Source of the DNA: Microcystis aeruginosa NIES-843
GTDB lineage: Bacteria > Cyanobacteriota > Cyanobacteriia > Cyanobacteriales > Microcystaceae
NCBI RefSeq assembly: GCF_000010625.1
Contig: NC_010296.1
Location: 5,520,001-5,552,000 of the forward strand
Reading direction: 5' to 3'
Length of the DNA: 32,000 nucleotides
This document shows positions 2,567 through 31,800 of the stretch, one piece after another. The stretch's first letter is position 1. Each line of letters begins with the position of its first letter. The position numbers and the translations under genes are program-made. The notes beneath the pieces are model-generated. The model was not told where the DNA came from, searched no databases, and was given only the letters and a program-made list of their open reading frames with translations.

Positions 2567-2589
2567 AATGTTATCAACAAAAAGATCAA

Positions 2590-6970: not shown

Positions 6971-9900
6971 TCAAATCTCAAGGCAAACTTTTAACTCTTC
7001 GGCTAAAATCTGGACATGGGGTTCCACCATAATCGAGACATGATTTCCTAGGACGAAATGAATCTCAACTGGCTCTGTAGAAAATTCACTCCAGCCTAAA
7101 GAGGAATCCTCGCAATCTCCAGCTATTAAATCTTTATTTGGATCATCAGCTAATTCCTCCCTGGCCCGTATAATCGTAATTTTACCAGGATAAATCTGTT
7201 TAGGGAGATAATCAATCAGACATAGACAGCTAGTTTTATAGGCTTGGACAATTTTTTCAAGCTGCCTAGTTTCCGCATTGGGAGGAAGCATATTAGCCAG
7301 TTTAAAAAAGTTTAAGGCGTATTTTAATTGTTCCTCCACTGTTAAGAGTTGAAGAGTTTCATAGGAAATATCGATGGTTTTATCTAAATAAACTTCGATA
7401 CCTTTGCTGACTTCAGCTAACCATCGCGCATGATCCCAATTAATATAATCAAGCAAAATTTGTTTGTCTTTATAAGTGGGTGCTGAAGAATCAATGATTG
7501 CTAGTAATGCCACTTGTTGACCCTGATTAACCAACTGTTGAGCCATTTCAAAAGCCACATTACCACCGTAGGAATGTCCTCCCAAAAAGTAGGGGCCTTG
7601 GGGTTGTAAATCTTGCATTGCTTGAAGATAAATACTGGCTATATCCTCAATGCGAGTGATTTCTCCAAACTGTTGATAGAGATCATTTTCAAAACTGTAG
7701 AAAGGTTGATCTTTTCCTAAACAACGTCCTAAATGGTAAAAATAAAATGGTCGTCCCCCGGCGCCTGGAACACAGAAGAAAGGAGGCTTTGAACCCTGGG
7801 GTTGAATGGGAACCAAACAAGACTGGTTAGAGGAATCTGCATCGGTTTGGATAATGGTCGCTAACTGTTCAATAGTTGGGTTTTGAAATATTGTAGTTAC
7901 GGCAATTTCTTTGCCTAACTGTTCTTTAATTTGGGTGATTAAATAAGGAGCTAAAAGGGAATGACCACCGAGGTCAAAAAAGTTATCATGCACGCTAATT
8001 TTGTCAATCTTTAGCACTTTTGACCAGATTTGCACGAGGTTTAATTCTAACTGATTACGCGCTTCAATAAATCTGTCTGAATCACTGGTGTTACTGGGAG
8101 CTTTTAACGCACGGCGATCAATTTTTCCGTTAGCTGTTAAAGGGAAAAACTCCAGCAGCACAAAAGCACCAGGAACCATATAACCGGGCAATTTATGGCT
8201 AAGAAATTGACGCAAATCGCCACTTGTTAGCTTTACTCCTAGCTTAGGTACAATATAGGCAACTAACTGTTTTTCCCCTGGATTGTCTTCACGAACAATC
8301 ACACAGGAAGACTGTACCGCCTGATTTTGACTAAGTACAGCCTCAATTTCTCCCAATTCAATACGGAAGCCGCGAATTTTTACTTGATTGTCAATCCGTC
8401 CTACATATTCAATATTACCATCGGGTAAATAACGGGCCAAGTCTCCCGTTTTATATAATTTTGACGGCTCATTGCCCCCCTTATTAAGGGGGGTTGGGGG
8501 GATCACTTCATCCTTCTCAAAAGGATTAGGAATAAATTTTTCTTGGGTTAATTCGGGACGGTTAAGATAACCTTTGGCTAATCCCATACCACCAATATGT
8601 AATTCTCCTACTACACCAATCGGGACAGGTTGGAGATTTTTATCCAGCAAATAGATTTGGGTATTGGCAATCGCTTTACCAATGGGAATAGTTGTGGCTG
8701 TAGAAGCTATGTTTTCCACTAAATACCAGGAAGAAAACGTTGTATTTTCCGTTGGCCCATAGACATGAAGCAACCGTTGTGGCGCACCTTTTTCTAGTAC
8801 CTCTTGTACCCATTTTGGTTCAACTGCTTCACCCCCAAATAGTAAGCATCGTAAGCTACTAAAAGCTTGCGGAACTAAATTGGCTAACTGATTAAAAAGT
8901 GCTGTGGTTAAAAATAAGACACTAATCTGATTTTCCTTTAAGCTTAGTGCCAATTCTTGGGGTGAGAGCAAAACTGATTTAGCGATAATAACAATCTTAG
9001 CACCGTTAAGTAAAGCCCCCCAAATTTCAAAAGTAGCGGCATCAAAAGCAATATTAGACGCTTGCACAACCCGGTCATCAGGAGTAAACTGGATGTAATT
9101 AGTATTTAATACCAGTCGATTAACTGCTTGATGAGTGACGATAACACCCTTGGGTATTCCTGTAGAACCAGAAGTATAAATAACGTAGGCTAAATTATCC
9201 GCAGAAACTGTGCTGTTCAGATTCTCCAGACTTGCTTGATTAATTTGTTGCCAATCTTTATCTAGACAGATAACAATAGCCTGATGATTTGGCAAGGAAT
9301 TCTGTAAAGATTCGCAGGTTAATATTATTTTAACCTGGGTATCTTGGAGCATAAAGCTAATGCGTTCTTGGGGATAATCTGGGTCAATAGGAACATAAGC
9401 TCCACCGACTTTAAGAATAGCCAATAATCCCACAATCATGTCTAAGGAACGCTCTAGACAAATCCCCACTAATTCATCTGGTTTTACTCCTAATTTTTGC
9501 AGGTAATGAGCTAATTGATTGGCTCGACAATTTAATTCATTGTAGGTTAATTGTTGCTCTGAACATACCACTGCTACCGCGTCGGGTGTGCGTTTTACCT
9601 GTTCTTCAAATAATTGATGAATACATTGATCAGAGGGATAATCTGTGTGAGTTTCGTTCCACAATGATAACAATTGATAACGTTCTTCATCACTTAACAT
9701 CGATAACTGAAAAATTCCCATATTGGGATTAGCTGCAATCGCAGTTAAGAGATTCTGAAAATGTTGCCACATTTGGTTAATAGTGGGGGCAGCAAACAAA
9801 TCCGTACTATAACACCAAACCGCTTCTAAACGATCAGAAACTTCCCAAAAATTTACCTCTAAATCAAATCGCGCTTTAAGCTCAACAGATAAAGGCAAAC

Positions 9901-11227
9901 TCTCCATCTTTAAGCCAGATAAACTGGCCTCAGATTGGGGAGTATTTTGCAGAGAAAACATCACCTGTATCAAAGGATTGTGACTTAAATCTCGGTTTAA
10001 TTGTAATTTTTCTACTAACATTTCAAAAGGCAAATCTTGATGAGCATAAGCTGATAAAGTTGTTTGCTTTACTCGTTGTAATAACTCCAGAAAACTCGGA
10101 TTTCCCGACATATCACCCCTTAAAGCCAAAGTATTGGCAAAAAAGCCCATTAATTTCTCAATTGCCGAACTATTACGATTAGCTATCGGAGAACCCACCA
10201 AAACATCTAATTGACCACTATAACGAGAAATTAGGACAAAAAAAGCCGCCAGTAAAGTCATAAATAGCGTTGCTCCTGACTCCTGACTTAACCTTTTGAG
10301 GCGTTGCGTTAAGTCTTGATTCAGTCGAAAAACCTGCCCATCACCCCGGAAACTAGGAATTGGAGGACGGGGATAATCCGTTGGCAATTCTAAAATAGTA
10401 GGTGCATCTTGTAACTGTTTTTGCCAGTAATTAAGTTGACGCTCCAAAACTTCACCGGTGAGCCATTGACGTTGCCATACGGCAAAATCGGCGTATTGAA
10501 TCGATAATTTAGCGAGAGGGGAAGGCAAACCCTGGACAAAGGCCGCATAAAGTTGAGATAATTCACCAAAGAAGATGCTCAAAGACCAACCATCGTAAAT
10601 AATATGGTGCATCTTCAACAGCAATACATACTCTTGGGAACTGAGTTTAAGTAACTTAAATTGGACTAATGATTCCTTGGCTAGATTAAAGGGTTTTAAG
10701 GAGAAAGCAATCGCTATTTCTTGCAGATGTTCTGTTTGTTCATTCTTTGATAAATTTTGTAAATCTTCCAGGGGTAAACTGACGGGTGAAGGGGGAGCAA
10801 TGCGCTGAATTGGTTGCCCTTCTACCATGGTAAAAGTGGTTCTTAAAATTTCGTGACGGCGAATCAGTTCGCTGAGACTTTGTTCTAAAGCCAACAGATT
10901 GAGGTTTCCTTCTAACCGCAAAGCGTCCAACAGATTATAGGAATGACTATCGGGAGAAAGTTGCTGCAGAAACCAGAGTCGTTGTTGAGCAAAAGAGAGG
11001 GGTAAATCCTGATCCCGTGACACGGGAATAATCTCTAAATCAACAGTATTAGTTGGGATTTTTGCCGCTCTCAAAAAGTCCAAAATTTCAGGTTTTTTGG
11101 CGGCGATTTCTTCTTTAATTTCTGGGGTCATAACCCCTTTGGGAGCCTGAAAACGAAGTTTTTCGCCTTCCAGCCATAGTTTAATCTCTAAACCCTTCAA
11201 ATACGCTAAAAAATCTCCTACTTTCAC
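6971..11227 (-). CDS. NRPS termination module (module 7): docking-C-A-T-TE, Ile/Val-like
   Basis: 1418 aa. The GTG start is preceded by GGGAGG. C domain: LSFAQQRLWFL, MHHIIYDGWS. A domain: LAYVIYTSGSTGIPKG, GELHIGGMGLAKGYL, YKTGDLARY, GRIDNQVKIRGFRIELGEIE, NGKIDRRAL. T domain: FFDLGGHSLL. TE domain: GGHSYGG. Hand-derived specificity signature is DAFFLGVTFK (Ile/Val type). Confidence 0.95.
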   Translation of the reverse strand: MKVGDFLAYLKGLEIKLWLEGEKLRFQAPKGVMTPEIKEEIAAKKPEILDFLRAAKIPTNTVDLEIIPVSRDQDLPLSFAQQRLWFLQQLSPDSHSYNLLDALRLEGNLNLLALEQSLSELIRRHEILRTTFTMVEGQPIQRIAPPSPVSLPLEDLQNLSKNEQTEHLQEIAIAFSLKPFNLAKESLVQFKLLKLSSQEYVLLLKMHHIIYDGWSLSIFFGELSQLYAAFVQGLPSPLAKLSIQYADFAVWQRQWLTGEVLERQLNYWQKQLQDAPTILELPTDYPRPPIPSFRGDGQVFRLNQDLTQRLKRLSQESGATLFMTLLAAFFVLISRYSGQLDVLVGSPIANRNSSAIEKLMGFFANTLALRGDMSGNPSFLELLQRVKQTTLSAYAHQDLPFEMLVEKLQLNRDLSHNPLIQVMFSLQNTPQSEASLSGLKMESLPLSVELKARFDLEVNFWEVSDRLEAVWCYSTDLFAAPTINQMWQHFQNLLTAIAANPNMGIFQLSMLSDEERYQLLSLWNETHTDYPSDQCIHQLFEEQVKRTPDAVAVVCSEQQLTYNELNCRANQLAHYLQKLGVKPDELVGICLERSLDMIVGLLAILKVGGAYVPIDPDYPQERISFMLQDTQVKIILTCESLQNSLPNHQAIVICLDKDWQQINQASLENLNSTVSADNLAYVIYTSGSTGIPKGVIVTHQAVNRLVLNTNYIQFTPDDRVVQASNIAFDAATFEIWGALLNGAKIVIIAKSVLLSPQELALSLKENQISVLFLTTALFNQLANLVPQAFSSLRCLLFGGEAVEPKWVQEVLEKGAPQRLLHVYGPTENTTFSSWYLVENIASTATTIPIGKAIANTQIYLLDKNLQPVPIGVVGELHIGGMGLAKGYLNRPELTQEKFIPNPFEKDEVIPPTPLNKGGNEPSKLYKTGDLARYLPDGNIEYVGRIDNQVKIRGFRIELGEIEAVLSQNQAVQSSCVIVREDNPGEKQLVAYIVPKLGVKLTSGDLRQFLSHKLPGYMVPGAFVLLEFFPLTANGKIDRRALKAPSNTSDSDRFIEARNQLELNLVQIWSKVLKIDKISVHDNFFDLGGHSLLAPYLITQIKEQLGKEIAVTTIFQNPTIEQLATIIQTDADSSNQSCLVPIQPQGSKPPFFCVPGAGGRPFYFYHLGRCLGKDQPFYSFENDLYQQFGEITRIEDIASIYLQAMQDLQPQGPYFLGGHSYGGNVAFEMAQQLVNQGQQVALLAIIDSSAPTYKDKQILLDYINWDHARWLAEVSKGIEVYLDKTIDISYETLQLLTVEEQLKYALNFFKLANMLPPNAETRQLEKIVQAYKTSCLCLIDYLPKQIYPGKITIIRAREELADDPNKDLIAGDCEDSSLGWSEFSTEPVEIHFVLGNHVSIMVEPHVQILAEELKVCLEI
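6974..7816 (-). other. Thioesterase (TE) domain of the termination module
   Basis: The last 281 aa begin LVPIQPQGSKPPFFCVPGAGG. The GxSxG nucleophile motif is GGHSYGG, with the Ser codon at 7573..7571. The fold pattern looks alpha/beta-hydrolase-like. Confidence 0.85.
8443..8523 (-). repeat. 81-nt in-frame palindrome-bearing block, copy in module 7 (encodes ...FEKDEVIPPTPLNKGGNEPSKLYKTGD)
   Basis: ctcccgttttatataattttgacggctcattgCCCCCCttattaaGGGGGGttggggggatcacttcatccttctcaaaag. The palindrome is at 8475..8493. Confidence 0.9.
11063..11227 (-). other. TubC-type N-terminal NRPS docking domain
   Basis: MKVGDFLAYLKGLEIKLWLEGEKLRFQAPKGVMTPEIKEEIAAKKPEILDFL matches the remembered TubC_N pattern (hLWxEGxxLRxxAPKGxhTPEh...K.ehL). 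The upstream protein ends in an acidic tail, ESLEDYEDGEL. Confidence 0.7.
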
Positions 11228-11393
11228 TTACCAATTGCCTCCCAAAGTTGTTGTTAAATTAGCTCTAAATCACGAAGTTTGCCCTGAGGATGTAAAAGTA
11301 CATCAGATTGCCATTGACTAGGATCAATATTTGTCCTTTGCCGTTTTAACTGTCTTGCTAAACTATTGATATCAGCTAAAACTTTAACTGTTT

Positions 11394-14300
11394 TTATAAT
11401 TCACCATCCTCATAATCTTCCAAGCTTTCAGTCATAGCTGTTTGTCCCGGTGCAACGGTAAGAACTTCAATGATTTGGGCTAAATTAGCGATAGTTGGGT
11501 ATTCCAGCAGATTTTGTAAAGACAATTCCACCGAGAAAAGATCGCGGGAACGGGAAATAACCTGAGTCGCTAACAAAGAATGTCCTCCCAATTCAAAGAA
11601 ATTATCCTTAATTCCAATACGTTCGACCCCCAAAACTTCACTCCAAATTTGAGACATTTGAGTTTCAATCGGGGTACGAGGTGCGAGAAATCCCGTAGCT
11701 AAATTGCGTGTAGCTGTATCGGGTGTAGGCAAAGCCTGCCGATCTACTTTACCATTAGGAGTCAAAGGTAGGGTATTAAGCAAAACAAAAGCCTGGGGAA
11801 CCATATAACTAGGTAGCTTTTGTTGGACAAATTCCCGCACCTGTGGTATCAGCTTCTGGACTAATTTACCATATAAAGGATTATTCGTATAATCAGTCCA
11901 GGATTTGGGAATAATCGTCTCATCATCCCAAAAATTGGGGTATGGTTGTTGATCAACTTTACTTATTATCGGTTCTAAGATGGCATTCTGGCGACAGAAA
12001 ACCACATCGAAAGAACCATCTTGACTACCTTCCCACCAACTGAGATGAACAGTGTAACCTAACTGTTCTCCCAGTTGCCACATTTGCTCAGGATTAATCC
12101 CTATACCGCTATTTTTTGCTAACAATTGCCGCAATTCTCCCACCGTTGTTACCCCGGGAGAATTTTCTAAACAGTCTAAAATTTGTAGTGCCTTTTGTAA
12201 TCGTTGATTGGGTACATCTCTGATGCCTAAATATTCTGGTTGTTCCAGTTTTAGTTTATCTTGTAGTTGCCCTAAAGAAAACCGATCCCGCTGCCAATTT
12301 AGCCAAGGAATTGTCGTTTTTTGCCCATTAGTATCCAGATGTAAAGTAACATCATAGCGGAATTGGGTTAACTCATTGTCAGCCTGACCCCGTTTCGGGG
12401 CAATTTCTACCCAAGAAATTCGCGGAAAGCGTTGTTTAAGCGCAATAAAGAACTGAGGTGCAATTAACAATTCTTCTTCGGTAGCTACACTTTGATTCAC
12501 CTGTTTTTGCCATTCTTCAAGGGTTTTATTAGCTTCAGCACGAGCTAACTGTACCGCGGCATGGTAAGGCTCTAGTAAGGACAAACTACGGATATCACCT
12601 AGGAAAATCTTACCCTGATCCGCAATCGCCTTGACTGCTCCTGCGATAACTTGTAATAGATAATCGACACTAGGGAAATACTGAACCACAGAGTTAATTA
12701 CTACTCGATCAAAAGTAGCTTGGGGAATGCCGGTAAAATCATCGGCTGTTCGGTGTAATAATCTTACTTTGCCCTCTAAACCCTCAATTGTGCTACATAA
12801 ATGTTCGAGGTTATTAATAGTAGCAGCGGAATAATCGGCTCCCCAATATTCCTGACAATGTTTCGCCACACGGAATAGCAATAATCCACTTCCGCAACCA
12901 ATTTCTAACACTCGTTGCGGTGGTTGATTTCCTAAAATTCGGCTCACTGTCTGATCAACCCATTCCTGCATTTCTGCTGCGGGAATAGCTTGTCGCGTAT
13001 AACTACTATTCCAACCACTAATATTAAAAGTGGGGTCATCGGTTTGAGGTTGGGGTTTACTGTAGGATTCTTCGTAAATCTTTTGCCAATCACTAACATA
13101 TTCACTCTGCCATTGAGCAAGCTGTTCGGGCAATACTTGACCCTTGAGAGCCGGAACTAAGTAGGCTACCAAATTAGTATTAAGCTGATCATGATCATGA
13201 TCACTTGCCTGATCAGCGCGAGCCATCACAACCGCTTCTTGTACTAGGGGATGTTGGCTCAAAACTGCTTCAATTTCCCCTAATTCAAGGCGGAAACCCC
13301 TTACTTTAACCTGATTGTCAATTCGTCCCAGATATTCAATTTTTCCATCAGGTAAATAACGAGCTAAATCTCCCGTTTTGTATAATTTTGACGGCTGCTC
13401 TCCCCCCTTATCAAGGGGGGTTAGGGGGGGATCAAGGGAGACAAACGGGTTAGAGATAAATTTCTCTGCTGTCAATTCTGGGCGATTCAAATAACCTCTG
13501 GCTACCCCTGCTCCTCCGATATGTAATTCCCCGGGTACACCGATAGGAACCGGTTGTAAATGGGAGTCTAAAATATAAACCTGCACATGAGGAATTGGCC
13601 GACCAATAGTTATTTTTGTGTCAAAAGGCGTACATTTAGCTACCGTTGCACAAACACTTCCTTCGGTGGGTCCATAACCATTAAAGAAATTTCGTCCCTG
13701 GGACCATTTTTTCACCAATTCAGGAGAACAAGCTTCCCCGGCGACAATAATAGTTTGCAGAGAGGAAAGATTTTCCCAAGACAGAACCGCTAAAGCTGAT
13801 GGCGGTAGAGTAATATGAGTAATCTTATTCTCCCGTAATTGCTTGATTAAGGGTAAACCGGGCATTAAATTTTCTTTACTTGCCAAATAAAGTGTCGCTC
13901 CCGCTCCCAAAGCCATTAAAACTTCTGAAATACAGGCATCAAAACTAAAAGAAGCAAATTGAAGCACTCGACTCTGAGAAGACACAGCAAAAGTCTGAAT
14001 TTGCGCCAGAGCTAAGTTACATAACCCTTGATGTTCAACCATCACCCCTTTAGGTTTACCCGTAGAACCAGAAGTATAAATCACATTAGCTAAATTAGAA
14101 GCTGTTACCTTCCCCGTCAAATTATCCCAGTTCATTGGTTTAATTTCTTGCCAAATTTCAGCTAAAAAGATGGTTTGGCCTCGATGATTTGGGAGTTTAT
14201 CAATCAGTGAACTTTGGGTTAGTAATAAGGGTACTTGACTATCCTCTAACATCAATTGTAGGCGTTCTTGAGGATATTCCGGGTCAAGGGGTAGATAGGC

Positions 14301-17300
14301 AGCACCGGCTTTAAGGATGCCTATTAATGCCACAATCATGTCTAAAGAGCGCTCTACACACAAACCGACTATTACCTCGGTTTCTAAGCCTAAAGAGCGT
14401 AAATAGTGAGCTAGTTGATTGGCCTGACTATTTAATTCTGCATAGGTCAACTGTTGATTTTCAAAGACTACTGCTACTGCATCAGGGGTACGCGCTGCTT
14501 GTTCCTCAATTAATTGATGAATACACTTGTTATAGGAGTAATCAGCTTTTGTCTCATTCCAACCCTCTAATAGTTGATACTCTTCCTCTGGGTTTAATAA
14601 GGGTAGTGAAGCTACTGATTGACGGGGATTTTCCACAATTGCCGCCAACAAAGTCTTAAAATGAGTCATCATACGGACAATGGTTTCAGCATCAAATAAA
14701 TCCCTGTTATAAGAGCAAAAACCGCCCAATCCTTCGGCTGCATCCCAGAGGTAAACTTCTAAGTCAACCCTAACTGAATCAAGTCCCGATGGTATCTCCT
14801 CAATGTTTACTCCGGGTAAATCCCAGGGAGAACTAGGAGCATTCTGAAGGGCAAAAACTATCTGTGTTAAAGGATTACGATCTAAATGACGCTCAATTTG
14901 TAATTTTTCGACTAACATCTCGAAGGGTAAATCTTGATGGTCGTAAGCGTCTTGAGTAGTTTGTCTGACCTGCGCAAGAAAATCCTCAAAGGTCGGGTCT
15001 TGAGATAAATCAAATCTTAACACTAAACTATTGACAAAAAAGCCGATTAACCCTTCAATTTCGGTGCGGTTACGGTTAGCAATTGGTGAACCAATTACCA
15101 CATCTGTTTGTTGACTATAACGAGATAGTAACACAGCAAAACCCGCTAGTAATGTCATAAAGAGAGTGCTACCGGACTCTTGACTAAGTTTTTTCAGTTG
15201 TTGCGTTAGTTGACTATCTAGTTGCAGTCGCTCCGTCCCTCCGCGAAAACTTTGGATTGCTGGCCGGGGACGGTCTGTGGGAAGTTGGTGTAGTAGGGGA
15301 ACCCCGGTTAATTGTTGCTTCCAGTAGCTTAATTGACGGTCTAATACTTCATTAGTTAACCACTGACGCTGCCACAGGGCAAAGTCAGCATACTGTATCG
15401 ATAAAGTAGGTAAATCTGCTTTTGTCCCGGTGCAGAAACTTCGATAATAGACTGATAATTCGTCGATTAAAACACCTAATGACCAACCATCTGCCGCAAT
15501 ATGGTGAATGGCTAATAATAGTACATATTCCTCTGTCTTGACTTGCCATAATTTGACTCGTAATACTGAACCTGATTCGAGATCAAAGGGTTCGGATGCT
15601 GCTGCTAATAACAGGTTTTTTACCTGTTGCTCAGAATGACTGAGGTTTTGCAGATTGACAACTGGTAAGGTGAAAGTTACATTAGGATCGATCGCTTGTA
15701 TTGGTTGGTTATCTTTGAGTTTAAATTGAGTCCGTAGGGGTTCATGGCGTTGAATAATTGCCTGGAAAGCTTTTTCTAAGGCTTTAACATTGAGATTTCC
15801 CTGCAAACGCATCGTTAAATCAATAGTATAAGCCCCACTTTCTCCTTCTAATTGATTCACAAACCAGAGACGTTCCTGGGCCCAGGATAGGGGAATATCA
15901 TCCTCCCGATTAACGGGGACAATTGATGGTAGCTTTAACCCTAAACCTGTTTGCAGTTCTTTTAAAATTACCGCACTTAACTGAGCAATGGTTGGAGATT
16001 CAAACAGATAACGCAAGGGAACAACAATCTCAAAGGTTTCCTGTAATCGAGAAATAACTTGAGTTGCCAACAGAGAATGTCCACCTAATTCAAAGAAATT
16101 ATCCTCAATACTGACTCGTTTTAATTTCAGTACGTCACCCCAAATCTGCGCCATTTTTTCTTCAATGGGGTTACGGGGAGCTATATATTCACCTTGGCTC
16201 TGTAAATCGGGAACGGGTAAAGCGCGGCGGTCTATTTTGCCATTGGGAGTTAAGGGGAAAGCATCAAGACGAATAAACGCAGTAGGAACCATATAGTCGG
16301 GTAATTTTGCTCGCAAAAATTGCCGTATTTCGTTAATTGTCAGGTTGATTTCGGGTTGCGGTACAACGTAAGCAACTAAGCGTTTATCCCCTAGATTATC
16401 TTCACGAACAATCACACAAGAAGACTGTACCGCCTCATTTTGGTTGAGTAACGATTCAATTTCTCCTAATTCAATACGGAAGCCGCGAAGTTTTACTTGA
16501 TTGTCAATGCGTCCTAAATATTCGATTTTACCATCGGGTAAATAACGGGCTAAGTCTCCCGTTTTATATAATTTTGACGGCTCATTGCCCCCCTTATTAA
16601 GGGGGGTTGGGGGGATCACTTCATCCTTCTCAAAAGGATTAGGAATAAATTTTTCTTGGGTTAATTCGGGACGATTGAGATAACCCCGCGCTAATCCCAT
16701 ACCACCAATATGTAATTCTCCCGGAACACCAATCGGGACAGGTTGTAAATGGGAGTCTAAGATATAAATTTGGGTGTTAGCAATGGGGCGACCAATAGTT
16801 ACTTTCAGGGTTTCATCTGTCCATTTTTCTACCGTGGCACAAACGCTGGTTTCTGTCGGTCCATAAGCATTAAAGAAATTTCTCCCTCTAGCCCATTGTT
16901 TGATCAATTCTTCTGAACAAGCTTCTCCCCCTACAATAATAGTTTGTAACTCTGGGATTTCTTCTAGGGGCAAAGCCGCTAAGGCTGAGGGGGGTAAAGT
17001 AACATGAGTAATACCATAATCTTTTAATCGCCCCATTAATGGCAACCCAGGCATTAAAGCGTCTTTTGTGTCTAAATAAAGGGTTGCACCCGATCCTATG
17101 GCCATGATAATTTCCCAGATAGAAGCATCAAAATTGAGGGAAGCAAACTGGAGAAGGCGAGAGTTTGACTGTAAGTTAAAGGTTTTAATTTGCGCTGTAG
17201 CTAGGTTAAATAGTCCCCGATGTTCCACCATTACCCCTTTAGGTTTTCCGGTAGAACCAGAGGTATAAATGAGATTAGCTAAATTATTGGCTGTTACTAC

Positions 17301-20300
17301 TCCTGTTAGGTTATCTTGGCTGTTTTGGTTAATTTCTTCTGTGAATCTGTCTAACAAGATTAGCGGCGCTTGATGTTCGGGTAGTTTATCGATTAATCCC
17401 TCTTGAGTGAGCAATAATGACAGTTGAGCATCAGCGATGGCAAATTGTAGCCGTTCACTGGGATAATCTGGGTCGAGAGGTAGATATGCACCACCCGCTT
17501 TTAATATCCCCAATAACCCCACAATCATCTCTAAGGAACGCTCAAGGGAAATACCGACTAAAGTATCAGCTTTTACGCCTAATTTCCGCAGATAATGAGC
17601 TAATTGATTAGCACGACAATTTAACTCATTGTAGGTTAATTGTTGCTGGGAACAGACCACTCCTACCGCGTCGGGTGTGCGTTTTACCTGTTCCTCAAAT
17701 AACTGATGAATACACTTATACTCAGGATAGTCAACTTGAGTATTATTCCACTCAATTAATAACTGATTAGTCTCGCTTTCTGTCAGTAAGGGTAATTGGG
17801 AAATCCGCGCTTGAGGATTGGCCGCAATTCCCCCTAATAAGTTGAGAAAATGCCCTGATAATCGCTCAATAGTGCTACTTTCAAACAAATCAGTATTATA
17901 TTCCCAGACACCTTTTAAGCCATCATCGGTGTTAACCATAGCTAAGGTTAAATCAAACTTAGCTGTGGTATTTTCCGGTGGCAAATCTGTCACCGTTAAT
18001 CCCGTCATTGCAATCTCAGACTTAGGTGTATTTTGCAGGACAAAAGCGACGTGAAATAGGGGAGTATGGCTCAAATCCCGTTCCGGTTGCAACGCTTCGA
18101 CTAACATTTCAAAGGGTAAGTCTTGATGCGCGTAAGCATCCATTGTCACTTCCCGAACACGGGTTAATAACTGACTAAAACTCGGATTGTCTGATAAATC
18201 CGTCCGCATCACTAAAGTATTAACAAAGAAGCCGATTAAACCCTCAATTTCACCGCGATTACGATTAGCGATGGGAGTTCCTACTAAAATATCACTTGAC
18301 CCTGTATAACGATACAGTAAAGCATCAAAAGCAGCCAACAGCGTCATAAATAATGTCACCCCTTGTTGGCGACTCAATTCAGTCAAAGCTTGGCTAAGTT
18401 TGGGGGAAAGGGAAAATTCTTGCTGAGTACCGACAAAGCTTTGCACCGCAGGTCGAGGGTGGTCTGTGGGAAGAGATAATAAAGAAGGTGCATTTGCTAG
18501 TTGATTTTGCCAGTAATTTAATTGACTTTGTAGGACATCCCCTTGTAACCATTGTTTTTGCCAAACTGCAAAATCTGCATACTGAATCGGTAAGGGAGCT
18601 AAATTTGCGGGATGATTTTGAGTGTAAGCATTATATAAGCTGGTCAGTTCGTGAATAAATACTTCTATTGACCAACCATCACTAATAATGTGGTGCATAC
18701 ACACTAATAAGAGATGTTCCGTCTCCGATAGCACCACTAAAGTGATTCTGATTAAGGATTCTTTGGCTAAATTAAAGGGTTGAGTGGCTTGTTTTTGCTT
18801 TAATTGCTGTGTTTTTTCTTCTTGCTCCTGGATGGGTAAATCTTGTAAATCAACGACCGATATTGTCTCCCTTGTTGTTTGAATAACCTGAGTCGGTTGT
18901 CCATCAATCGTGACAAAATTAGTCCGTAATACTTCATGGCGATTACAGATTTCTCGTAAACTTTGTTCTAAGGCCTTTTGATTGAGGTTGCCTCGGAAAT
19001 GCAACACCATCGGTATATTGTATAAAGCGCTATTTGGTTGCAATTTATCTAAAAACCATAAACGCTGTTGAGCAAAAGATAGAGGTAGTTCTGTATCCTT
19101 AGTTCTCGGTAAAATCGGGGGTACTGTTAGCGTGAGATTTTGCTGCTGTAATTGTCCAATGAGATGCGCTAATTCGGCTACCGTAGCTGCACCAAATAAA
19201 CTCCGCAAAGGTAGTTCTATTTTAAATAAACTCCGAATCCGAGAAACTAATTGAGTTGCGAGGAGAGAATGGCCGCCAATTTCAAAGAAATTATCATAAA
19301 TTCCCACTTGATCTATTTTGAGTATTTCTGTCCAAATTTGCACCAACATCTCTTCAATTCCATTGCGTGGTGCTACATATTGATCCCGGCGATTTCCTAT
19401 CTTATCTGGTGCGGGTAAAGCGCGACGATCTACCTTACGATTAGTAGTAAGGGGTAAAGATTCCAGAAAAACAAAAGCTTGAGGAACCATATACAAAGGC
19501 AATTTACTGGACAGAAACTGACGCAGTTCACTAATCATCGGTATCCGTTCGTAATGAGCTACTATGTAGGCGACTAAATATTTATCCCCCGGAGTATCTT
19601 CCCGAATAATCACACAAGATGTTTGTACATCAATATTTTGGTTAAGTACCGCTTCAATTTCTCCTAACTCAATACGGAATCCGCGAATTTTAACCTGATT
19701 GTCAATCCGGCCAAAACATTCAATATTACCATCAGGTAAATAACGCGCTAAATCTCCCGTTTTATACAAACGATTGAACGGTGAATGAGCAAAGGGATTG
19801 TTAATAAATTTTTCAGCAGTCAATTCGGGCCGATTCAGATAACCCCGCGCTAAACGAACACCGCATAGATGCAATTCTCCCTTAACTCCAATGGGTACAG
19901 GTTGCAGATTTTGATCTAGTATGTATGCTTTTGTATTAGCAATGGGACGACCAATCAGCACTGAATTGATTTTTTCTGACTGATAATCTAGCAAGTCATG
20001 AACTATGGCGGTTACAGACGCTTCTGTGGGGCCATATACATTAATACATTGAACCCGTTTTCCGACCATTTGTCGCCAAATATTGACGGTTTCTGGTAAC
20101 ACTGCATCCCCTCCCACGGCGACGACCCGCAGACTGGATGGTACAGTAGCTAATGATTGGGAAACGGCGAGCGCCCATTCATGCCAATAGGCAGGGGTAA
20201 TATTTAAAACGGTGAGGCTTTCTTGTTCGATAAAATCGGCAAAATCAGTCAAAGTTGGGAACATTTGCCCTGGTCTTAAGACCACTGTGCCACCTTTTAA

Positions 20301-23300
20301 CCAAGTGGGGAAAATTTCTTCCGCAGCGACATCAAAGCCAAAGGAAGCAAACTGTAAAACGCGATCAGATTCTGTTAAACCGAATACTTCACTAATGCCC
20401 CAACTATGATTAACTAAAGCTTCATGAGTTAACATCACTCCTTTAGGTTTACCGGTTGAACCAGATGTATATAATAGGCATAGTAAATTTTCTGGAACCA
20501 CTTCACTGAAGGGATTTTCTGGACTTTGAACCGTCAAAATCTCGGCTAATTTATCTAAGACAATTACCCCCACATCTTCTGCTGGTAAAGAATCGAGTAA
20601 ACTTTCTTGAGTTAGCAGTAGAGAAATTTGGGCATCTTCTGCCATATAAGTCAACCGTTGCTGGGGATAATCTGGATCTAAAGGTATATAGGCTCCTCCA
20701 GCTTTGAGAACTGCTAATAATCCGACAATAACTAACAGCGACCGCTCTAAATAAATGCCAACTAAAACTTCTGAATTTACCCCCAAAGATTGGAGATAAT
20801 GGGCTAATTGATTCGCCTGAATATTTAAGTCTTGATAGGTTAATTCTTGACCTTCAAAGACCACTGCTACTGCAGCCGGTGTTCGTGCTGCTTGTTCTTC
20901 AAATAAATGATGAATACACTGATGGAAAGGATAGTCTTTTTCGGTGGCATTCCAGTCTTTTAATAATTCTTTTGCCTCTACTTCGGTTAATAGTGGTAGT
21001 TGAAAGATTGGCTGCTGCGGGTTAACAACCAATGCTTCTAGTAGGGTGATGAAATTTCCTGTTAATCGCTCAATGGTACTGCGATCAAATAAATCGGTAT
21101 TATATTCCCATACCCCTTTTAATTCTGCACCGGTATTCTCCATCGCCAGGGTTAGATCAAATTTGGCGGTGTCATTTTCTGTGGTGAGGGGAGTGGCGGT
21201 TAATCCTGTTAGTTCTAAGGGAGACGGGGGACTATTTTGCAGCAGAAAATCCACTTGAAATAAAGGCGCGTGACTTAAATCTCGTTCAGGTTGTAGGACT
21301 TCTACTAACATTTCAAAGGGCAAATCCTGATGAGCATAGGCATCCATTGCCATTTCCCGTACTCGACCCAATAACTGATTAAAATTGGGCTTACCTGACA
21401 AGTCAATTCGCAGAACCAAAGTATTGACAAAAAAGCCGATTAAACCTTCAATTTCACTGCGATTACGGTTAGCAATGGGAGTACCAATTAAGATGTCTTC
21501 CTGTTCTGTATAACGGTAAAGTAAGACAGCATAAGCGGTTAACAGGGTCATAAATAAGGTGACACCCTGTTCCTGGGTTAATTGGGTCAGTTTTTCGGTT
21601 AATTCCCAAGAAAGGCTAAAGGGTAAATGTCCCCCAGCAAAACTTTGTTGATTGGGTCGAGGTCTATCTGTTGGTAAAGATAGAAGGGCCGGTGCGCCGG
21701 CTAACTGTTTTTGCCAGTAATCTAGTTGCTGTTGCAATACCTCTCCCTGCAGCCATTGTCTTTGCCAAAGGGTAAAATCTCCATACTGGATAGATAGGGG
21801 ATTTAGGGGCGAAGATAAACCCTGAATATAGGCATTATAGAGGGCGGTTAGTTCCTGAAGAAATACCCCCATTGACCAGCCATCACTGACAATGTGGTGC
21901 ATACAGACTAATAAGAGATGTTCCGTTTCAGATAACACCACTAAAGTGATTCTGATTAAGGGTTCACCGGCTAAGTCAAAGGGTTGAATCGCTTGATTTT
22001 GTGCTAACTCTTGGGAGGCAATTGCTTGTTCACTACCAGATAAATGCTGTAAATCAACAACCGTAACTGTCCAGTTTCGTGCTTGTATAACTTGGGTAGG
22101 GATACCATCAACGGTAATAAAGTTGGTGCGTAAAGCCTCATGGCGATCAAAAATTTCTTCTAAACTCTGGATTAAGATTTCTGAGTTTAAAGTTCCCTCT
22201 AAACGCAAGGCTAGGGGTATATTATAAAAAGAACTATTCGACTCAAATTCAGCCAAAAACCAGAGACGAGTCTGAGCAAAAGATAGGGGTAATTCTGCTG
22301 CTTTGTCCCTGGGTAAAATCGGCAGTTCAGTTAGTTGTTCTCCTTCGGAAAGCCGTTTTATTTCTTGGGACAATTCGGCGATTGTCGGTGCAACAAATAA
22401 CTCGCGTAAGGGTATTTCTACCTGAAAAGCCTCACGGATGCGCGAAATTAGTTGCGTTGCTAATAATGAATGTCCACCCAACTCAAAGAAGTTGTCGTGA
22501 ATCCCCACCTGTGCAACTTTTAGCACTTTTGCCCAAATCGAGGATAATATCTCCTCAATGGGGTTACGCGGCGCAATGTATTGCGCTTGGCTTTGGAATT
22601 CGGGAGCCGGTAAAGCACGATGATCAATCTTACCATTGGGCGTTAAGGGTAGGGATTCCAAAATGACAAAGGCACTAGGAATCATATACTCTGGTAACTT
22701 AGCTTTCAGGAATTGCCGCAGTTCAGTAACATTAAGCGAATTTTTCTCTTTTTGGGGGGAAATAATCTCTACTTGGGGAATAATATAAGCGACTAAACGT
22801 TTCTGATTTGTCTCATCTTCTTGGGCAATCACAACAGCCGTTTTTACTGCATTGTGCTGACTAAGAACGGTTTCAATTTCTCCCAATTCAATGCGGAAAC
22901 CCCGAATTTTTACTTGATTGTCAATCCGTCCTAAATACTCAATATTACCGTCGGGTAAATACCGACATAAATCTCCCGTTTTATATAATTTTGACGGCTC
23001 ATTGCCCCCCTTATTAAGGGGGGTTGGGGGGATCACTTCATCCTTCTCAAAAGAATTAGGGATAAATTTCTCTTGTGTTAACTCTGGACGATTAAAATAA
23101 CCCCGCGCTAATCCCATACCACCAATATGTAATTCTCCAGCTACCCCCACAGGAACAGGTTGTAAGAAAGCATCGAGAATATAAACCTGAGTATTACTGA
23201 TGGGTCGCCCAATGGGAATATTGGTTATAGTTGGTGAAGTAAATTCGGAGAAAGTCGCCGCAATGGTTGCTTCCGTTGGTCCGTAACCATTTAATAGTCG

Positions 23301-25568: not shown

Positions 25569-28500
25569 TTTCTTTTTCTTGGTAAAATGGCTGGAACGAT
25601 GGGAGCGGATTTTTCCTGTTTTAACTGTTCAATCCCTTGGGCTAATTCTGCTAGTGTGGCCGAGTTGAATAACTGACGTAGGGGAAGTTCAACTTTCAAG
25701 CGATCGCGGATCTGTGCTACTAATTTAGTGGCTAGTAGGGAATGTCCTCCCAGTTCAAAGAAGTTATCATTTATACCCACTTTCTCGACTTTTAGCACTT
25801 CTGACCAAACAGTTACTAATATATCCTCGATCGGGTTACGCGGAGCAACATATTTTTCTGATGGTTCACTACTAGATTCTGGTGGGGGTAAAGCTCGACT
25901 ATCTATTTTTCCATTAGCAGTAAGGGGTAAGGCATCTAAAATAACGAAAGCATTAGGTATCATGTAACTGGGTAATTTAGCTTTCAGGAATTGCCGTATT
26001 TCGTTAATGGTAATCGTTTTTTCCGATTGTGGCACAATGTAGGCCACAAGACGCTTATCTCCTGTTGCATCATCCCTCACTATTACTACTGTTTCCCAAA
26101 TCTGGGGATGAGATGCTAATAATGCTTCGATTTCCCCCAACTCAATCCGAAAACCCCGAATCTTAACTTGATTGTCAATGCGTCCTAAATATTCTAATTC
26201 TCCCTTGGGTAAATAACGGGCTAAATCTCCCGTTTTATATAATTTTGACGGCTCATTGCCCCCCTTATTAAGGGGGGTTGGGGGGATCACTTCATCCTTC
26301 TCAAAAGGACTAGAAATAAACCTTTCTTTGGTCAATTCAGGACGATTGAGATAACCTTTTGTTACTCCGGCACCCCCCACATACATCTCCCCGGGTACAC
26401 CAACCGGTACAAGTTGTAAATATTGGTCTAGTAAATATACTTGTAAGTCGGGAATGGGACGACCAATCACACTAGCTGTACTATCCAAGTCGGTCATACT
26501 TAATGGTCGATAGGTGACATGAACGGTAGTTTCCGTAATTCCGTACATATTAACCAATTGGGGGCATTGGTCGCCATGGCGCTGAAACCAAGATTGTAAG
26601 CTGTTAATTTCTAAAGCTTCTCCTCCAAAAATAACTAAACGTAAGCTTAAATCGTTATCTGTTGTCGATGAACGATCCCCCCTTGATAAGGGAAAACTTC
26701 CTTTTAAGGATTCTTCAGCTTGAATTAACTGACGGAAAGCGGTAGGAGTTTGATTGAGAATTGTTACTTTTTCTTGACATAATAGCTGATAAAATGCTTC
26801 GGGGGAACGAGTTATTAAGTAGGGGACAACTACCAAGCGTCCACCATATAACAAAGCTCCCCACATTTCCCACACCGAAAAGTCAAAAGCGTAGGAATGA
26901 AATAGACTCCAGACATCTTGACTATTAAAATTATACCAAGCATCTGTAGCGGCAAATAATCGCACGACATTGGAGTGATTGACTAAAACTCCTTTCGGTT
27001 TACCCGTGGAACCGGAAGTGTAGATAACATAAGCTAAGTTATCTGGGGTGACGGTGTTTTCTGGATTTGAATGGCTGTTTTCGGCAATTTTTTCCCAGTC
27101 GGTATCTAAATAAATAATCTGCGCTTGATGTTGAGGTAGAGTTTCTCCTAGCTTTTGTTGCGTTAACAGCACTGATAATTGAGCATCTTCTAACATGAAG
27201 CTTAACCGTTCAATCGGATATTCTGGGTCAAGAGGAACATAAGCACCACCCGCTTTTAATATCCCCAATAAACCCACAATCATCTCTAAAGAACGTTCAA
27301 GACAAATACCCACTAATTGATCAGGTTTTACTCCCAAAGATTGCAAATAATGCGCTAAATGATTAGCTCGATTATTTAATTCATTGTAGGTTAATTGTTG
27401 ATCTGAATATACAACTGCTACCGCTTCGGGTGTGCGTTTTACCTGCTCTTCAAATAACTGGTGAAGACACTTAGTAACTGGGTAATCAACCTGCGGATTA
27501 TGACCGTCTATTAATAATTGATTTTTCTCAAATTCTGTCAGCAGAGGTAATTGAGAAACTCGCGCCTCTGGATTGGCGACCATTCCCTCCAGTAAGGTTT
27601 GAAAATGCCCCAATAGGCGAGTAATTGTCCCATCATCAAATCGGTTAGTATCATAGCTAATTCGCACCTGTAATTGATCCCCAGGGAGCGCAATTAATGT
27701 TAGAGGATAATTAGTTTGTTGAGAAACCTGAATATTTTCCAGACAAAAACTATCATTGCCTAATACCGCAGTAGCGTCAACTGGATAATTTTCAAAAACA
27801 ACTATACTGTCAAATAAAGATGCACCTCTAGGGATTTCACTCCAAGTTTGAATCTCTGCTAATGAACTATATGAGTATTGATTAGACTCAACTAACTGAG
27901 CTTGTAAATCTTTCAATAAAGTCAGTGCTGAGGTGTCCGGTTTAACTTGGATTCGCATGGGCAAGGTATTAATAAATAATCCCACCATTGCTTCAATACC
28001 AGCAATAGATGTCTCACGACCAGATACAGTCGCACCAAATACTATGTCTGTTTCTTGGCTATAGCGCGATAGCAATAATCCCCAAGTTGCTTGCACTAAA
28101 TTATTCAGTGTCAAGCGATTTTTCCTAACAAAAGATTGGCAGGTAGCTGTGGTTGAAGCGGGGAACTGAATTTGCTGTTTTTTATAGACGTTGCTATTTT
28201 TTGAATTCGCTGATCTTTCTATGACCAAAGGAGTAGGAGCAGTAAAACCTTGCAGTTTTTGTTGCCAAAATTCTTCGGCTGGTTTTTGTTCCTGTTGCTG
28301 TAGCCAAGCAATATATTGGCGATAGCTGACAACAGGTTGATCAGTGCTAATCTGATTTTGAGAAATTTCTTGATAAATCTTTAAAAAATCTTTAATCACT
28401 AAAGATAAAGACCAACCATCAAGTAATAAATGATGACTACTCCAAACAAATTGATAGGTATTTTTATCCAACTTGATCAGATTTAGGCGCATTAATGGAG

Positions 28501-28884: not shown

Positions 28885-31800
28885 TTACAGTTGAGCTAAT
28901 ATTTGTTCTAGTTCTATTTGGTCGATTTCTAATAAGGGGAAATCTTGGGCGGTGTAATCTCCAGTATCCGCTTCAGGCGGCGGAGGATTCACTATTTCTG
29001 GTTCTGTTTGTGACTCGGTGACTCTTGTTGCTACTGTGGCTAATTCGGCGATACTTTGATGGGTAAATAATTGTTTGGGGGTTAACTCTAATCCTGCTTT
29101 TCTCGCTCTAGTAATGATTTGAATAGTCAGGATGGAATCGCCCCCCAGTTCAAAGAAGTTATCATAGATACCTACTGGCTCTACTCGCAAAACTTGTGAC
29201 CAGATTGTGGCTAATATTTCTTCTTCTAGGTTACGAGGAGCAACAAAATTCAATTCTATCTCCCCACGCAAGTTGGGTTCAGGTAAAGCACGATGGTCTA
29301 ATTTGCCATTGGGGGTTAAAGGTAAGGTTTCTAAGGTAACAAAAGCACTAGGAATCATGTAATCTGGGAGCCTAGCTTTGAGAAATTGCCGCAGTTCATT
29401 TGTGCTTGGGGTGACATTTTTGGGCGGCACGATGTAAGCAACTAGGCGTTTTATTCCTGGACTATCTTCACGAGCGGTGACACAAGTTGTTTCTACATAA
29501 TTATGCTGACTCAGAACCGCTTCAATTTCTCCTAATTCAATGCGGAATCCTCTAATTTTTACCTGGTTATCAATACGTCCTAAGTATTCGATATTGCCAT
29601 CCGGTAAATAACGAGCTAAATCTCCTGTTTTATATAATCTGCTTTCTGTTGTCTGATGGAAGGGATGAGAGATAAATTTTTCATTGGTTAACTCTGGACA
29701 ATTGAGATAGCCTCTCGCTAATCCCGCACCGCCTATGTGTAATTCCCCAGGCACACCAACAGGAACAGGTTGTAAATATTCGTCTAAAATATAGGTTTGT
29801 ACGTTAGCAATAGGACGACCAATCACTGGTTTGAGGTTAGCTGTGATCAAACAGATTGTGGTATCCACAGTGCATTCTGTCGGTCCATAAACGTTATAGA
29901 AATTAATGTTTTGAGCCTTTGCCAAAGTTGCCCACATAGATTCATCAATGGCTTCTCCTCCCACCAAAACAGATTGAGGATGATTGTCACTGTCCAGCAA
30001 TCCTACTGAAATCAGTAGCCTCAGTTGCGATGGTGTGCAATCCAATACATCTATTTTTTGCTGCCGCAGGTAGGATAACATGGCATGGCCATCAAATCGC
30101 ACCTTTTCTGGCACAATGTTCAGGCTATGACCATATATCAGTTGGATAATCTGTTTCACGGAAGTGTCAAAAGCTAAAGAACCATTGATGCTGACTCGCA
30201 ATGGGGAAATCTGATGGTGAGCATAAATAGCTTGATGCAGTCCGTGAGCAAGATTGACAACGGAGGAATGCTGAATCATCACTCCCTTTGGGTCTCCTGT
30301 TGAACCTGAAGTGTAGATTGCATAAGCTAAGTTTTCCGGTTGAACTTCACAGCAGGGATTTGATTCCTGTGCTTGAGTGATAAACGACCAGTCAGTATCT
30401 AAACAAACGAGTTCTGATTGGTGTTTTGGAAGTCCTGCGATTAAATGTTTTTGGGTTAATAGAACTCTAACTTGAGCATCTTGGAGTATATACAGTAAAC
30501 GCTCAGTTGGATACTCAGGGTCAATTGGTAAATAACCTCCACCTGCTTTCAAAATACCTAGCAGTCCTACCATCATTTCTAGGGAACGCTCGACACAAAT
30601 TCCCACCAACACATCTGGTCCCACCCCCAAATTTTGCAGGTAATGAGCTAACTGGTTCGCTCTGGCATTCAACTCCCGATAATTTAACTGCTGGTCTTCA
30701 AACACGACCGCTATATGATCAGGAGTTCGTTCCACCTGTTCCTCAAACAATTGATGAATACACTTATCTAATGGATAGTCAGCCTGAGTATTATTCCACT
30801 CAAAAAGTAACTGCTGCTGCTCAACTTCTGTGAGCATTAATAATTGGAAAATGGGCTGCTGTGGGTTCAGCACAATAGAGTTGAGCAGTCTGACAAAATG
30901 CTTGACCATACGCTCAATGGTAGCGGCATCAAATAAGTCGGTGTTATATTGCCAACACGGCTCAATCTCCCCTTTCGCTTCCCTTACCATTAAACTCAAA
31001 TCCAAGTGTCCGCCTCGTTGTCCTTTCAAGTATGGCTCCATTCGCAACAGGGATTTTTGCAAATGCAAGGAATTATTTTTTGCTTCACACCAAGTTAGTG
31101 CTTGCCAAGCAAAACTGACTTGACATAAAGGCGAACGGCTAGTATCTCTTTGTGGCTGAAGTTTATCTGCTAACCAAGAAAATGGGTAATCTTGATGCTT
31201 TTGGGCTTGTCTAACTATTTTGCCAACTTGAGCCAGAAGTTCTGTAAATGTGGCATTCTCCTGAACAGAAATTCTTAAAACGGTCAGGTTGGAAAAGTAG
31301 CCAACAATCTCTTTAAATTCTTTAGCCGTCCGACCTCTCATCGGACTACCTATAAGAATATCTGTTTGATTAGTGTAGCGGTAAAGTTGGACGTAAAATG
31401 CTGTGAGCAGAATCTGATAAAGACTGGTGTTCGATGCTGAAGCTAGATACCTGAGTTTTTCAGTTAACTGTTCATCTAGCTTGGCAATGTATGAGGCTCC
31501 TTGATAAGTCTTTACTGGAGGGCGAGGTTTGTCGGGAAGCAGATGCAAAATTGGCAATTCGCCAGCTAATTGTTGTTGCCAATATTGCCACAGTTTTTCT
31601 CCCCTATTACCCGATAGCATTGCTGCTTGCCATTGGACAAAATTTGCATAAGTTTTATTTTCATTCCAAGAATCTGGGGCTGTTTCTGTCTGCTGTTGAC
31701 TAACTTGCTCCACTTCCTCGGGATATAAAGCTTGAAATTCACTCAGCAGTAAATTATAAGACCACATATCACCAGCAATGTGGTGCATTGTCAGCAAGAG

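Follow-up and report, generated by a model that had tools for sequence, protein, structure and literature searches.

A palindrome-bearing 81-nucleotide block shared without substitution by four adenylation domains of a Microcystis peptide synthetase cluster

Introduction

The small dispersed repeats SDR1 to SDR8, which Elhai et al. reportedly described in 2008 from Nostoc and its relatives, are said to be 21 to 27 nucleotides (nt) long, dispersed, and apparently mobile. The element considered here is a 31-nt palindromic core that lies within a block of 81 nt, and this block is present in identical form in four adenylation (A) domains of a nonribosomal peptide synthetase (NRPS) cluster of Microcystis aeruginosa NIES-843. 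The whole stretch of DNA that was analyzed, referred to as the window, comprises 32,000 nt (contig NC_010296.1, positions 5,520,001 to 5,552,000). Compared by description and not by sequence, the core resembles the SDRs in its tiny size, its dispersal, and its hairpin form. The SDRs come from heterocyst-forming cyanobacteria, whereas the present element also occurs in Microcystis, in Microcoleus, in Planktothrix-type clusters, and in a few non-cyanobacterial metagenome-assembled genomes (MAGs).

Rickettsia palindromic elements (RPEs) are selfish palindromes that reside in frame and add a surface peptide compatible with protein function (PMC10969869). The element described here is likewise a genome-dispersed palindrome that is read in frame within many unrelated open reading frames (ORFs). 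However, RPEs span approximately 100 to 150 bp and are restricted to Rickettsia, whereas the core in question measures about 31 nt, is based on G/C runs, is found across cyanobacteria, and bears no sequence relation to them. It belongs neither to the sequence family nor to the host genus of RPEs, and the resemblance is functional only. REPINs have been reported from Nostoc punctiforme (PMC3116915), and the hairpins of repetitive extragenic palindromic (REP) sequences carry the tag GTAG or CGTC (PMC3733652). REP and REPIN sequences, which are mobilized by RAYTs (IS200/IS605-like genes), are similar in being short G/C-rich hairpins of high copy number, and inverted doublets of the present element occur in Microcoleus and Dulcicalothrix. 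The tag here, however, is GATC or AATC accompanied by an extra C6 run, which is not the REP tag, and the copies that were studied are intragenic. IS605-family elements are numerous in Microcystis (PMC2779907). Nor does the element have the makeup of a MITE, a miniature transposable element with terminal inverted repeats, a target-site duplication, and a length of about 100 to 600 bp; its unit is 31 to 56 nt long, and at the module-2 site it takes the place of 10 nt, with no duplication seen.

The host proteins have a recombination history of their own. Cyanobacterial A domains recombine in such a way that the region downstream of the Acore is retained (Baunach et al. 2021, PMC8097286). The cluster described here is similar in that its A domains are mosaic, with divergent Acores and an A6-A8 region that is homogenized between modules, but the tract is exceptionally short (about 81 to 122 nt) and contains a repeat-derived insert. 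We found no mention of such a short insert-bearing tract in the searchable NRPS literature, and searching the literature by motif string with the peptide and DNA motifs of the block returned nothing relevant. The processes at work, a repeat settling in a permissive loop and short-patch conversion, are of known kinds, and the case adds an instance of them. In our reading, the block is probably an old element-derived insert which was spread by short-tract ectopic gene conversion and is tolerated in a permissive loop.

Four identical blocks in a seven-module cluster

Exact matching on the plus strand of the window returned the 81-mer four times, compared to zero matches expected from 100 shuffles. 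Translation placed the copies, hereafter type A, in modules 7, 5, 3, and 2 of the cluster, in agreement with the original prediction, which had been made from the sequence of the window alone. The coding strand is the minus strand, on which the block reads FEKDEVIPPTPLNKGGNEPSKLYKTGD and is situated between the A6 and A7 motifs. The host genes and the four blocks are as follows.

6971 to 31842, minus strand: host genes, four ORFs that make up a seven-module C-A-T NRPS with a terminal TE (Pfam)
8443 to 8523, minus strand: type-A block of module 7 (insert, 8462 to 8517; 31-nt core, 8475 to 8504)
16556 to 16636, minus strand: type-A block of module 5 (insert, 16575 to 16630; core, 16588 to 16617)
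22973 to 23053, minus strand: type-A block of module 3 (insert, 22992 to 23047; core, 23005 to 23034)
26227 to 26307, minus strand: type-A block of module 2 (insert, 26246 to 26301; core, 26259 to 26288)

The cluster genes include one that encodes a protein of 4,724 amino acids (aa) and the module-7 gene, with a product of 1,418 aa. Microcystis NRPSs are close homologues of the module-2 protein (93 to 98% identity), and Planktothrix OciE matches at 75%. On the basis of these identities, the cluster is assigned to the Microcystis cyanopeptolin (mcn/oci) type.

The identity of the blocks is sharply bounded. Pairwise identical tracts among the four modules extend over 82 to 86 nt, except for modules 5 and 7, which share 122 nt. 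Within 60 to 210 nt on each side, just 46 to 69% of the alignment columns are invariant in all four modules; given this flank invariance, the probability of 81 consecutive invariant columns is at most 1e-13. As had been proposed, the flanks carry many synonymous differences: 80 to 81 of 300 codon pairs per flank differ synonymously, compared to 4 of 162 in the block, all four of which are codons that overlap the block edges. On a larger scale, the neighborhood of the block (A6-A8) is 78 to 93% identical between modules, and the Acore is 30 to 60% identical. Not all of the 81 nt are peculiar to the filled loops. About 25 of them are near-invariant in all seven modules (CTTTTGA on one side and AAAATTATATAAAACGGGAG on the other). 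According to the seven-module alignment, the loop-specific part thus amounts to about 56 nt, the remainder being the conserved A7 motif and anchor sequence.

The short loop that had been predicted for modules 1 and 4 is present in both and comprises 7 residues:

19770 to 19790, minus strand: empty A6-A7 loop of module 4 (AHSPFNR)
29638 to 29658, minus strand: empty A6-A7 loop of module 1 (HQTTESR)

The filled loop comprises 20 aa, and the net gain is therefore about 13 residues and not the approximately 19 first suggested. Similarly, the perfect G/C stem that had been described as 6 bp long is present, but fold prediction gives it 8 bp (CCCCCCTT/AAGGGGGG) and a 3-nt loop. The fold z-score of the block is just -1.5.

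The exact matches do not exhaust the family within the cluster, and in this respect the count of four copies was incomplete. Two further inserts were found. One is a diverged copy within the N-methyltransferase-containing module 6, and the other is a second insert in module 2:

13370 to 13446, minus strand: fifth, diverged copy in module 6 (core, GATCCCCCCCTAACCCCCCTTGATAAGGGGGG; peptide, VSLDPPLTPLDKGGEQPS)
26666 to 26710, minus strand: second repeat-family insert of module 2, a partly deleted copy that lies in reverse orientation between A4 and A5

When mismatches to the 19-nt palindrome were allowed, the palindrome of the module-6 copy, CCCCCCTTATCAAGGGGGG, was located at 13402 to 13420. 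The left flank of this copy differs from that of type A, and its right flank is shared in part (GCCGTCAAAA). The same variant (DPPLTPLDKG...) is also present in other, two-module Microcystis NRPS proteins. The A4-A5 insert contains TTTCCCTTATCAAGGGGGGATC at 26674 to 26695, reads GSFPLSRGD, and is independent of the A6-A7 block; in the alignment against LgrA, this segment appears as extra residues. It is fuller in some strains (PPLSRGVRGD), decayed in Planktothrix, and absent from some homologues.

The core belongs to a dispersed cyanobacterial repeat family

A scan for dispersed repeats, in which CCCCCCTTNATAAGGGGGG was used as the query against one genome per species, yielded at least 120 loci. 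Among those listed, 102/120 (about 85%) are in named cyanobacteria, with genera that include Microcystis, Nostoc, Calothrix, Microcoleus, and Tychonema. The suggested likeness to the very small palindromic dispersed repeats of cyanobacteria was thereby borne out for the core, which is found outside the cluster both in intergenic DNA and in unrelated genes. The architecture of the family can be written as (G/A)ATC-C6-spacer-C6TTNNNAAG6. The 31-nt core of the NRPS block, GATCCCCCCAACCCCCCTTAATAAGGGGGG (GATC-C6-AA-C6TTAATAAG6), conforms to it.

At the listed loci, a second C6/G6 run stands on exactly one side of 143 of the 164 palindromes, and the runs are separated by the spacers AA, TAA, TAG, TG, TTAAT, or TTAGT. 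GATC precedes 82 of the 143 double-run palindromes, and the tag of the family is GATC or AATC. The spacer AA is found in 22/143 copies and AAT is the commonest loop; the NRPS core has both. Copies of the family stand in varied flanks, in tandem arrays, and in inverted doublets. No Rfam family was matched at the gathering threshold in a scan of six element-rich loci, which did not include the block of the window.

The majority of the copies look noncoding or intergenic. The median stop-free span across copies is 56 aa, and ORFs of at least 300 aa hold 14 of 154 copies. Among the in-frame hosts identified by Pfam are TamB (three copies), a Ser/Thr-kinase/AAA/GAF/histidine-kinase protein, another NRPS, a CHAT-NACHT-TPR protein, NAD-dependent DNA ligase (LigA), PolA, a GT2 glycosyltransferase, and an RPE65 oxygenase. 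In-frame copies were located at L059 (2306 to 4516), L048 (1718 to 7996), L107, L109, and L087. Direct reading of the sequence showed that the palindrome is free of stops in four of six frames, so that its survival in frame is unsurprising.

Several forms of the repeat were seen at individual loci. In Microcystis ichthyoblabe (L012, 6482 to 6959), a 37-nt unit built from the element forms a tandem array of 12.9 copies with 97% matches, and arrays of this unit are also present in L043, L098, and L102. The array borders are conserved (...TATAATTAAATTAAAAATGGATTTTAGGTTC on one side and TCTGATAATTTTTAACGCCTACCTACTTA on the other), and many Microcystis loci have the same borders around 1 to 12 units. 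Such an array may represent an RNA locus or an element of the MITE kind; no Rfam match was obtained. REPIN-like inverted doublets, 20 to 40 nt apart, are frequent in Microcoleus, Dulcicalothrix, and Calothrix (L007, L009, L014, L027, L062, and others). In Nostoc, the element is paired with a second hairpin, CCCTCCCCTTATAAAGGGGAGGG. The few non-cyanobacterial MAGs with the double-run palindrome are L015, L073, L094, and L097 (Nitrospirae), L029 and L119 (Calditrichaeota), L061 and L103 (Fibrobacterota), and L052 (Patescibacteria). L073 contains a longer perfect palindrome, C6-TTAAT-C6-TTGATAA-G6-ATTAA-G6, and in L052 the palindrome lies in frame within a DNA polymerase I linker. Horizontal spread, convergence, or contamination during binning could explain these copies.

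Empty, filled, and mosaic alleles

The homologue searches included one with the 1,418-aa module-7 protein as the query. In more than 300 homologues, the A6-A7 loop is usually 4 to 7 aa long, with 7 aa being typical. For module 2, Planktothrix (EHSNK) and Microcystis L125 (ENSNK) have an empty site. The filled states of this module are type A, type B (CCTTTTGATCCCCCCCTACCCCCCCTTAATAAGGGAGG..., DPPLPPLNKGGTQGGAK), and a duplicated type B. A further module-2 state, a chimera of types A and B with its breakpoint inside the palindrome, recurs in metagenomes. Both filled and empty alleles (SNYPDSR, LAGDT) of module 7 exist in Microcystis. In Planktothrix, module 5 carries a block that is 79/81 identical (GGGGGG>GGATGG), and module 3 carries a decayed copy that does not fold into the hairpin. 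Special conservation of the Planktothrix module-5 copy was considered and rejected, since the surrounding DNA is equally similar (97 to 100%) between the two genera.

Comparison of filled and empty alleles of module 2 revealed that the block replaced 10 nt, AAATTCCAAC, rather than being simply added, and no target-site duplication was visible between the filled and the empty site. At informative sites, the immediate flanks of the filled module 2 are all like the empty allele of L125, whereas 49/49 sites in the block are donor-like. The match to the empty allele runs to positions -1/-3 and +2/+6 nt of the block; isolated donor-like sites occur farther out. Module 3 resembles modules 5 and 7 at 13/13 block sites and over a patchy run upstream, and its flanks are mostly like those of the Planktothrix module-3 orthologue. 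A donor-like tract within orthologue-like flanks, the pattern by which ectopic gene conversion is recognized, is therefore present in modules 2 and 3. Gene conversion between modules was one of the explanations offered in the original prediction, and by the informative-site test it is the best account of the identity.

A shared region of the same kind was also observed in P0300, in which two modules with unrelated Acores share a 95 to 100% identical A6-A8 region, including a module-6-type insert. The identical loops in the two-module proteins P0295 and P0297 were dropped as additional evidence because their entire A domains are 85 to 100% identical. The A6-A7 loops of other cyanobacterial NRPSs (P0255-P0267, P0211, P0240, P0031, P0037, and P0161) hold unrelated repeat-like inserts. 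Nostoc NosD homologues, for instance, have RSRGAGEQGSRGAE... there; other examples are NPQPPTPNPQPLTP and KDEG...FILHPSSF, the latter resembling a palindrome read as protein. Small repeats in general seem to accumulate in this loop.

Constraint on the block

An alternative is that the identity is held by selection on DNA, RNA, or peptide. The block would then serve as a per-module mRNA hairpin, as a diproline (PPTP) pause that aids cotranslational folding of the A domain, or as a recombination site for module shuffling. Several features would suit such a role. Fold prediction gives a stable 8-bp G/C hairpin, PP motifs occur in the peptide, the recurrent A/B chimera breaks within the palindrome, and in module 5 the distance from the Acore exchange boundary to the block downstream of it is about 100 nt. 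Moreover, the block diverges less between strains than its coding flanks do.

We nevertheless regard this alternative as unlikely. Modules 1 and 4 do without the block, as do the empty alleles of modules 2 and 7 in Microcystis and Planktothrix. Nonsynonymous and stem-breaking variants are common: DNA-level comparison with L122 revealed private changes in all three visible copies (three nonsynonymous and two synonymous), and other strains carry P>L, E>G, G>D, G>R, and I>S in the block, with several of these changes in the stem. According to fold prediction, the Planktothrix copies have lost the hairpin, the fold z-score given above is modest, and the identical core is scattered through unrelated genes and intergenic DNA. 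Since other modules and strains either have no copy or have copies that are decayed or bear stem mutations, the earlier idea of a required once-per-module mRNA hairpin or pause is disfavored. As regards the protein, the insert appears as extra residues in an alignment to LgrA. A model of the module-2 A domain (AlphaFold2, 31-sequence alignment) was uninformative for the loop, with a predicted local distance difference test score below 50 over residues 334 to 436, far past the insert.

The flanks of the block are confined to NRPS loops

The type-A flanks are shared by 0/103 dispersed full cores. When metagenomes were scanned for the core together with its left flank, with a non-NRPS base required in front, no match was obtained, whereas the unrestricted control returned 28 occurrences, 28/28 of them in an NRPS A6-A7 loop. 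The possibility that the insert of about 56 nt is itself the dispersed unit was rejected on these grounds. Because the flanks are found in NRPSs only, the four identical blocks appear to have been copied from one another rather than to have arisen by four insertions of the element.

This bears on a further alternative, in which a small mobile cassette was inserted recently, independently, and site specifically into the A6-A7 loop of each module. The core does come from a family that is dispersed and presumably mobile, the loop houses at least three forms whose left flanks cannot be aligned (type A, the module-6 type, and type B), a second copy resides in another loop of module 2, and the boundaries of identity are very tight. 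Set against this are the flanks of the four copies, which never accompany dispersed copies; the replacement of 10 nt in module 2 and the lack of a visible target-site duplication there; the co-conversion of upstream module-3 markers in patches; and the 122-nt tract of modules 5 and 7. We consider independent insertion quite unlikely. The proposal that a miniature element had spread into a permissive loop thus survives in part: the loop is permissive and varies between lineages, but the shared NRPS flank and the 10-nt replacement speak against four separate insertions.

It is highly improbable, and largely refuted, that the loop is an ancestral protein feature kept since module duplication or that the identity is an artifact of assembling repeated modules: the block in Planktothrix modules 3 and 5 indicates that it predates some divergence of the clusters, but the 7-aa loop is typical over hundreds of homologues, empty loops are found in Planktothrix OciE and some Microcystis alleles, synonymous differences abound in the paralogous flanks but not in the block, and independent assemblies concur, with the block in the same modules of L121 (a JGI contig), PCC 7941 (L123), and the complete genome L122, in the 28 metagenome occurrences, and with module-specific flanks.

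Discussion

Spread by short-tract ectopic conversion would account for the sharp edges of the block as well as for its lack of substitutions. The starting point would be a composite of one copy of the 31-nt dispersed repeat and about 25 nt of NRPS-specific flank, which would have become lodged in frame in the surface loop between A6 and A7, a loop that appears to accept many kinds of insert. From there, the composite would have passed between modules and alleles via short-tract ectopic gene conversion or template switching. Near-invariant neighboring sequences, CCTTTTGA on the left and AAAATTATATAAAACGGGAGA of A7 on the right, would act as anchors; anchoring on both sides would explain why identity ends almost exactly at the 81-mer. 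If the block postdates the divergence of the surrounding modules, zero substitutions beside a flank divergence of 10 to 25% are to be expected. The data show that the core belongs to the repeat family, that the flanks are confined to NRPSs, that empty and filled alleles exist, and that the modules are mosaic. We infer the mechanism (RecA-type conversion or template switching during replication), which way the transfer ran, and that the insert, which looks like tolerated passenger DNA rather than a designed signal, is neutral.

A number of points weigh against this account. The conversion junctions would have only about 8 nt of perfect identity at the left edge and about 20 nt at the right edge, which is short for RecA-dependent exchange. 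The direction of transfer into module 3 depends on the Planktothrix outgroup, whose copy could simply be decayed. The genome scan covered one genome per species and at least 120 loci and is not a full census of the source genome, and the core element itself is only presumably mobile. Finally, simple neutrality does not sit easily with the between-strain comparisons: PCC 7941 differs from the window at 0/243 block positions and 59/1,440 positions of the coding flanks, and L122 differs at 6/243 and 91/1,440 positions, respectively. We attribute the low divergence of the block to the youth of its spread. Every potential donor has the same block, and flank differences are mostly old, recombined allelic or paralogous polymorphism; selection or biased conversion would also fit.

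Short-tract conversion of a tolerated insert would provide a concrete and datable case of a selfish mini-repeat that enters proteins, combined with very short conversion tracts that homogenize NRPS modules, in a toxin-family cluster of a bloom-forming cyanobacterium. For NRPS engineering, the A6-A7 loop and the second, A4-A5 loop represent sites that are naturally tolerant of insertion. In annotation, recurrent PPL(N/D/I/S)(K/R)GG peptides of cyanobacterial proteins can be treated as repeat derived, and in assembly, an exact repeat common to several modules deserves to be flagged.

A bolder extension concerns the 31-nt unit itself, with its GATC tag, guide-like C6 run, and 8-bp G/C hairpin. 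It might represent an ultrasmall mobile family of cyanobacteria and a few other phyla, mobilized through recognition of the single-stranded hairpin in an IS200/IS605- or RAYT-like manner, which colonizes protein loops as RPEs do and supplies portable homology that seeds NRPS module exchange. The A/B chimera that breaks within the palindrome can be cited for the portable-homology role. We offer this idea tentatively, as on balance it is rather doubtful.

Neighboring genes and the module-1 ORF

Downstream of the cluster, at 965 to 3549 of the window, a gene of the DndC-type PAPS-reductase family (E = 1.5e-198 against the PADLOC DndC model) is accompanied by an HNH_2 endonuclease gene. The pair is probably a phosphorothioation-type defense locus. 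A connection between this locus and the 81-nt block was considered and rejected, as no link was seen.

At the other end of the cluster, the module-1 ORF (28885 to 31842) is listed with a TTG start, and its condensation domain aligns only from profile position 119. The product comprises 985 aa, compared to 1,108 to 1,112 aa in orthologues; the true start or an upstream portion of the gene may be missing or frameshifted.

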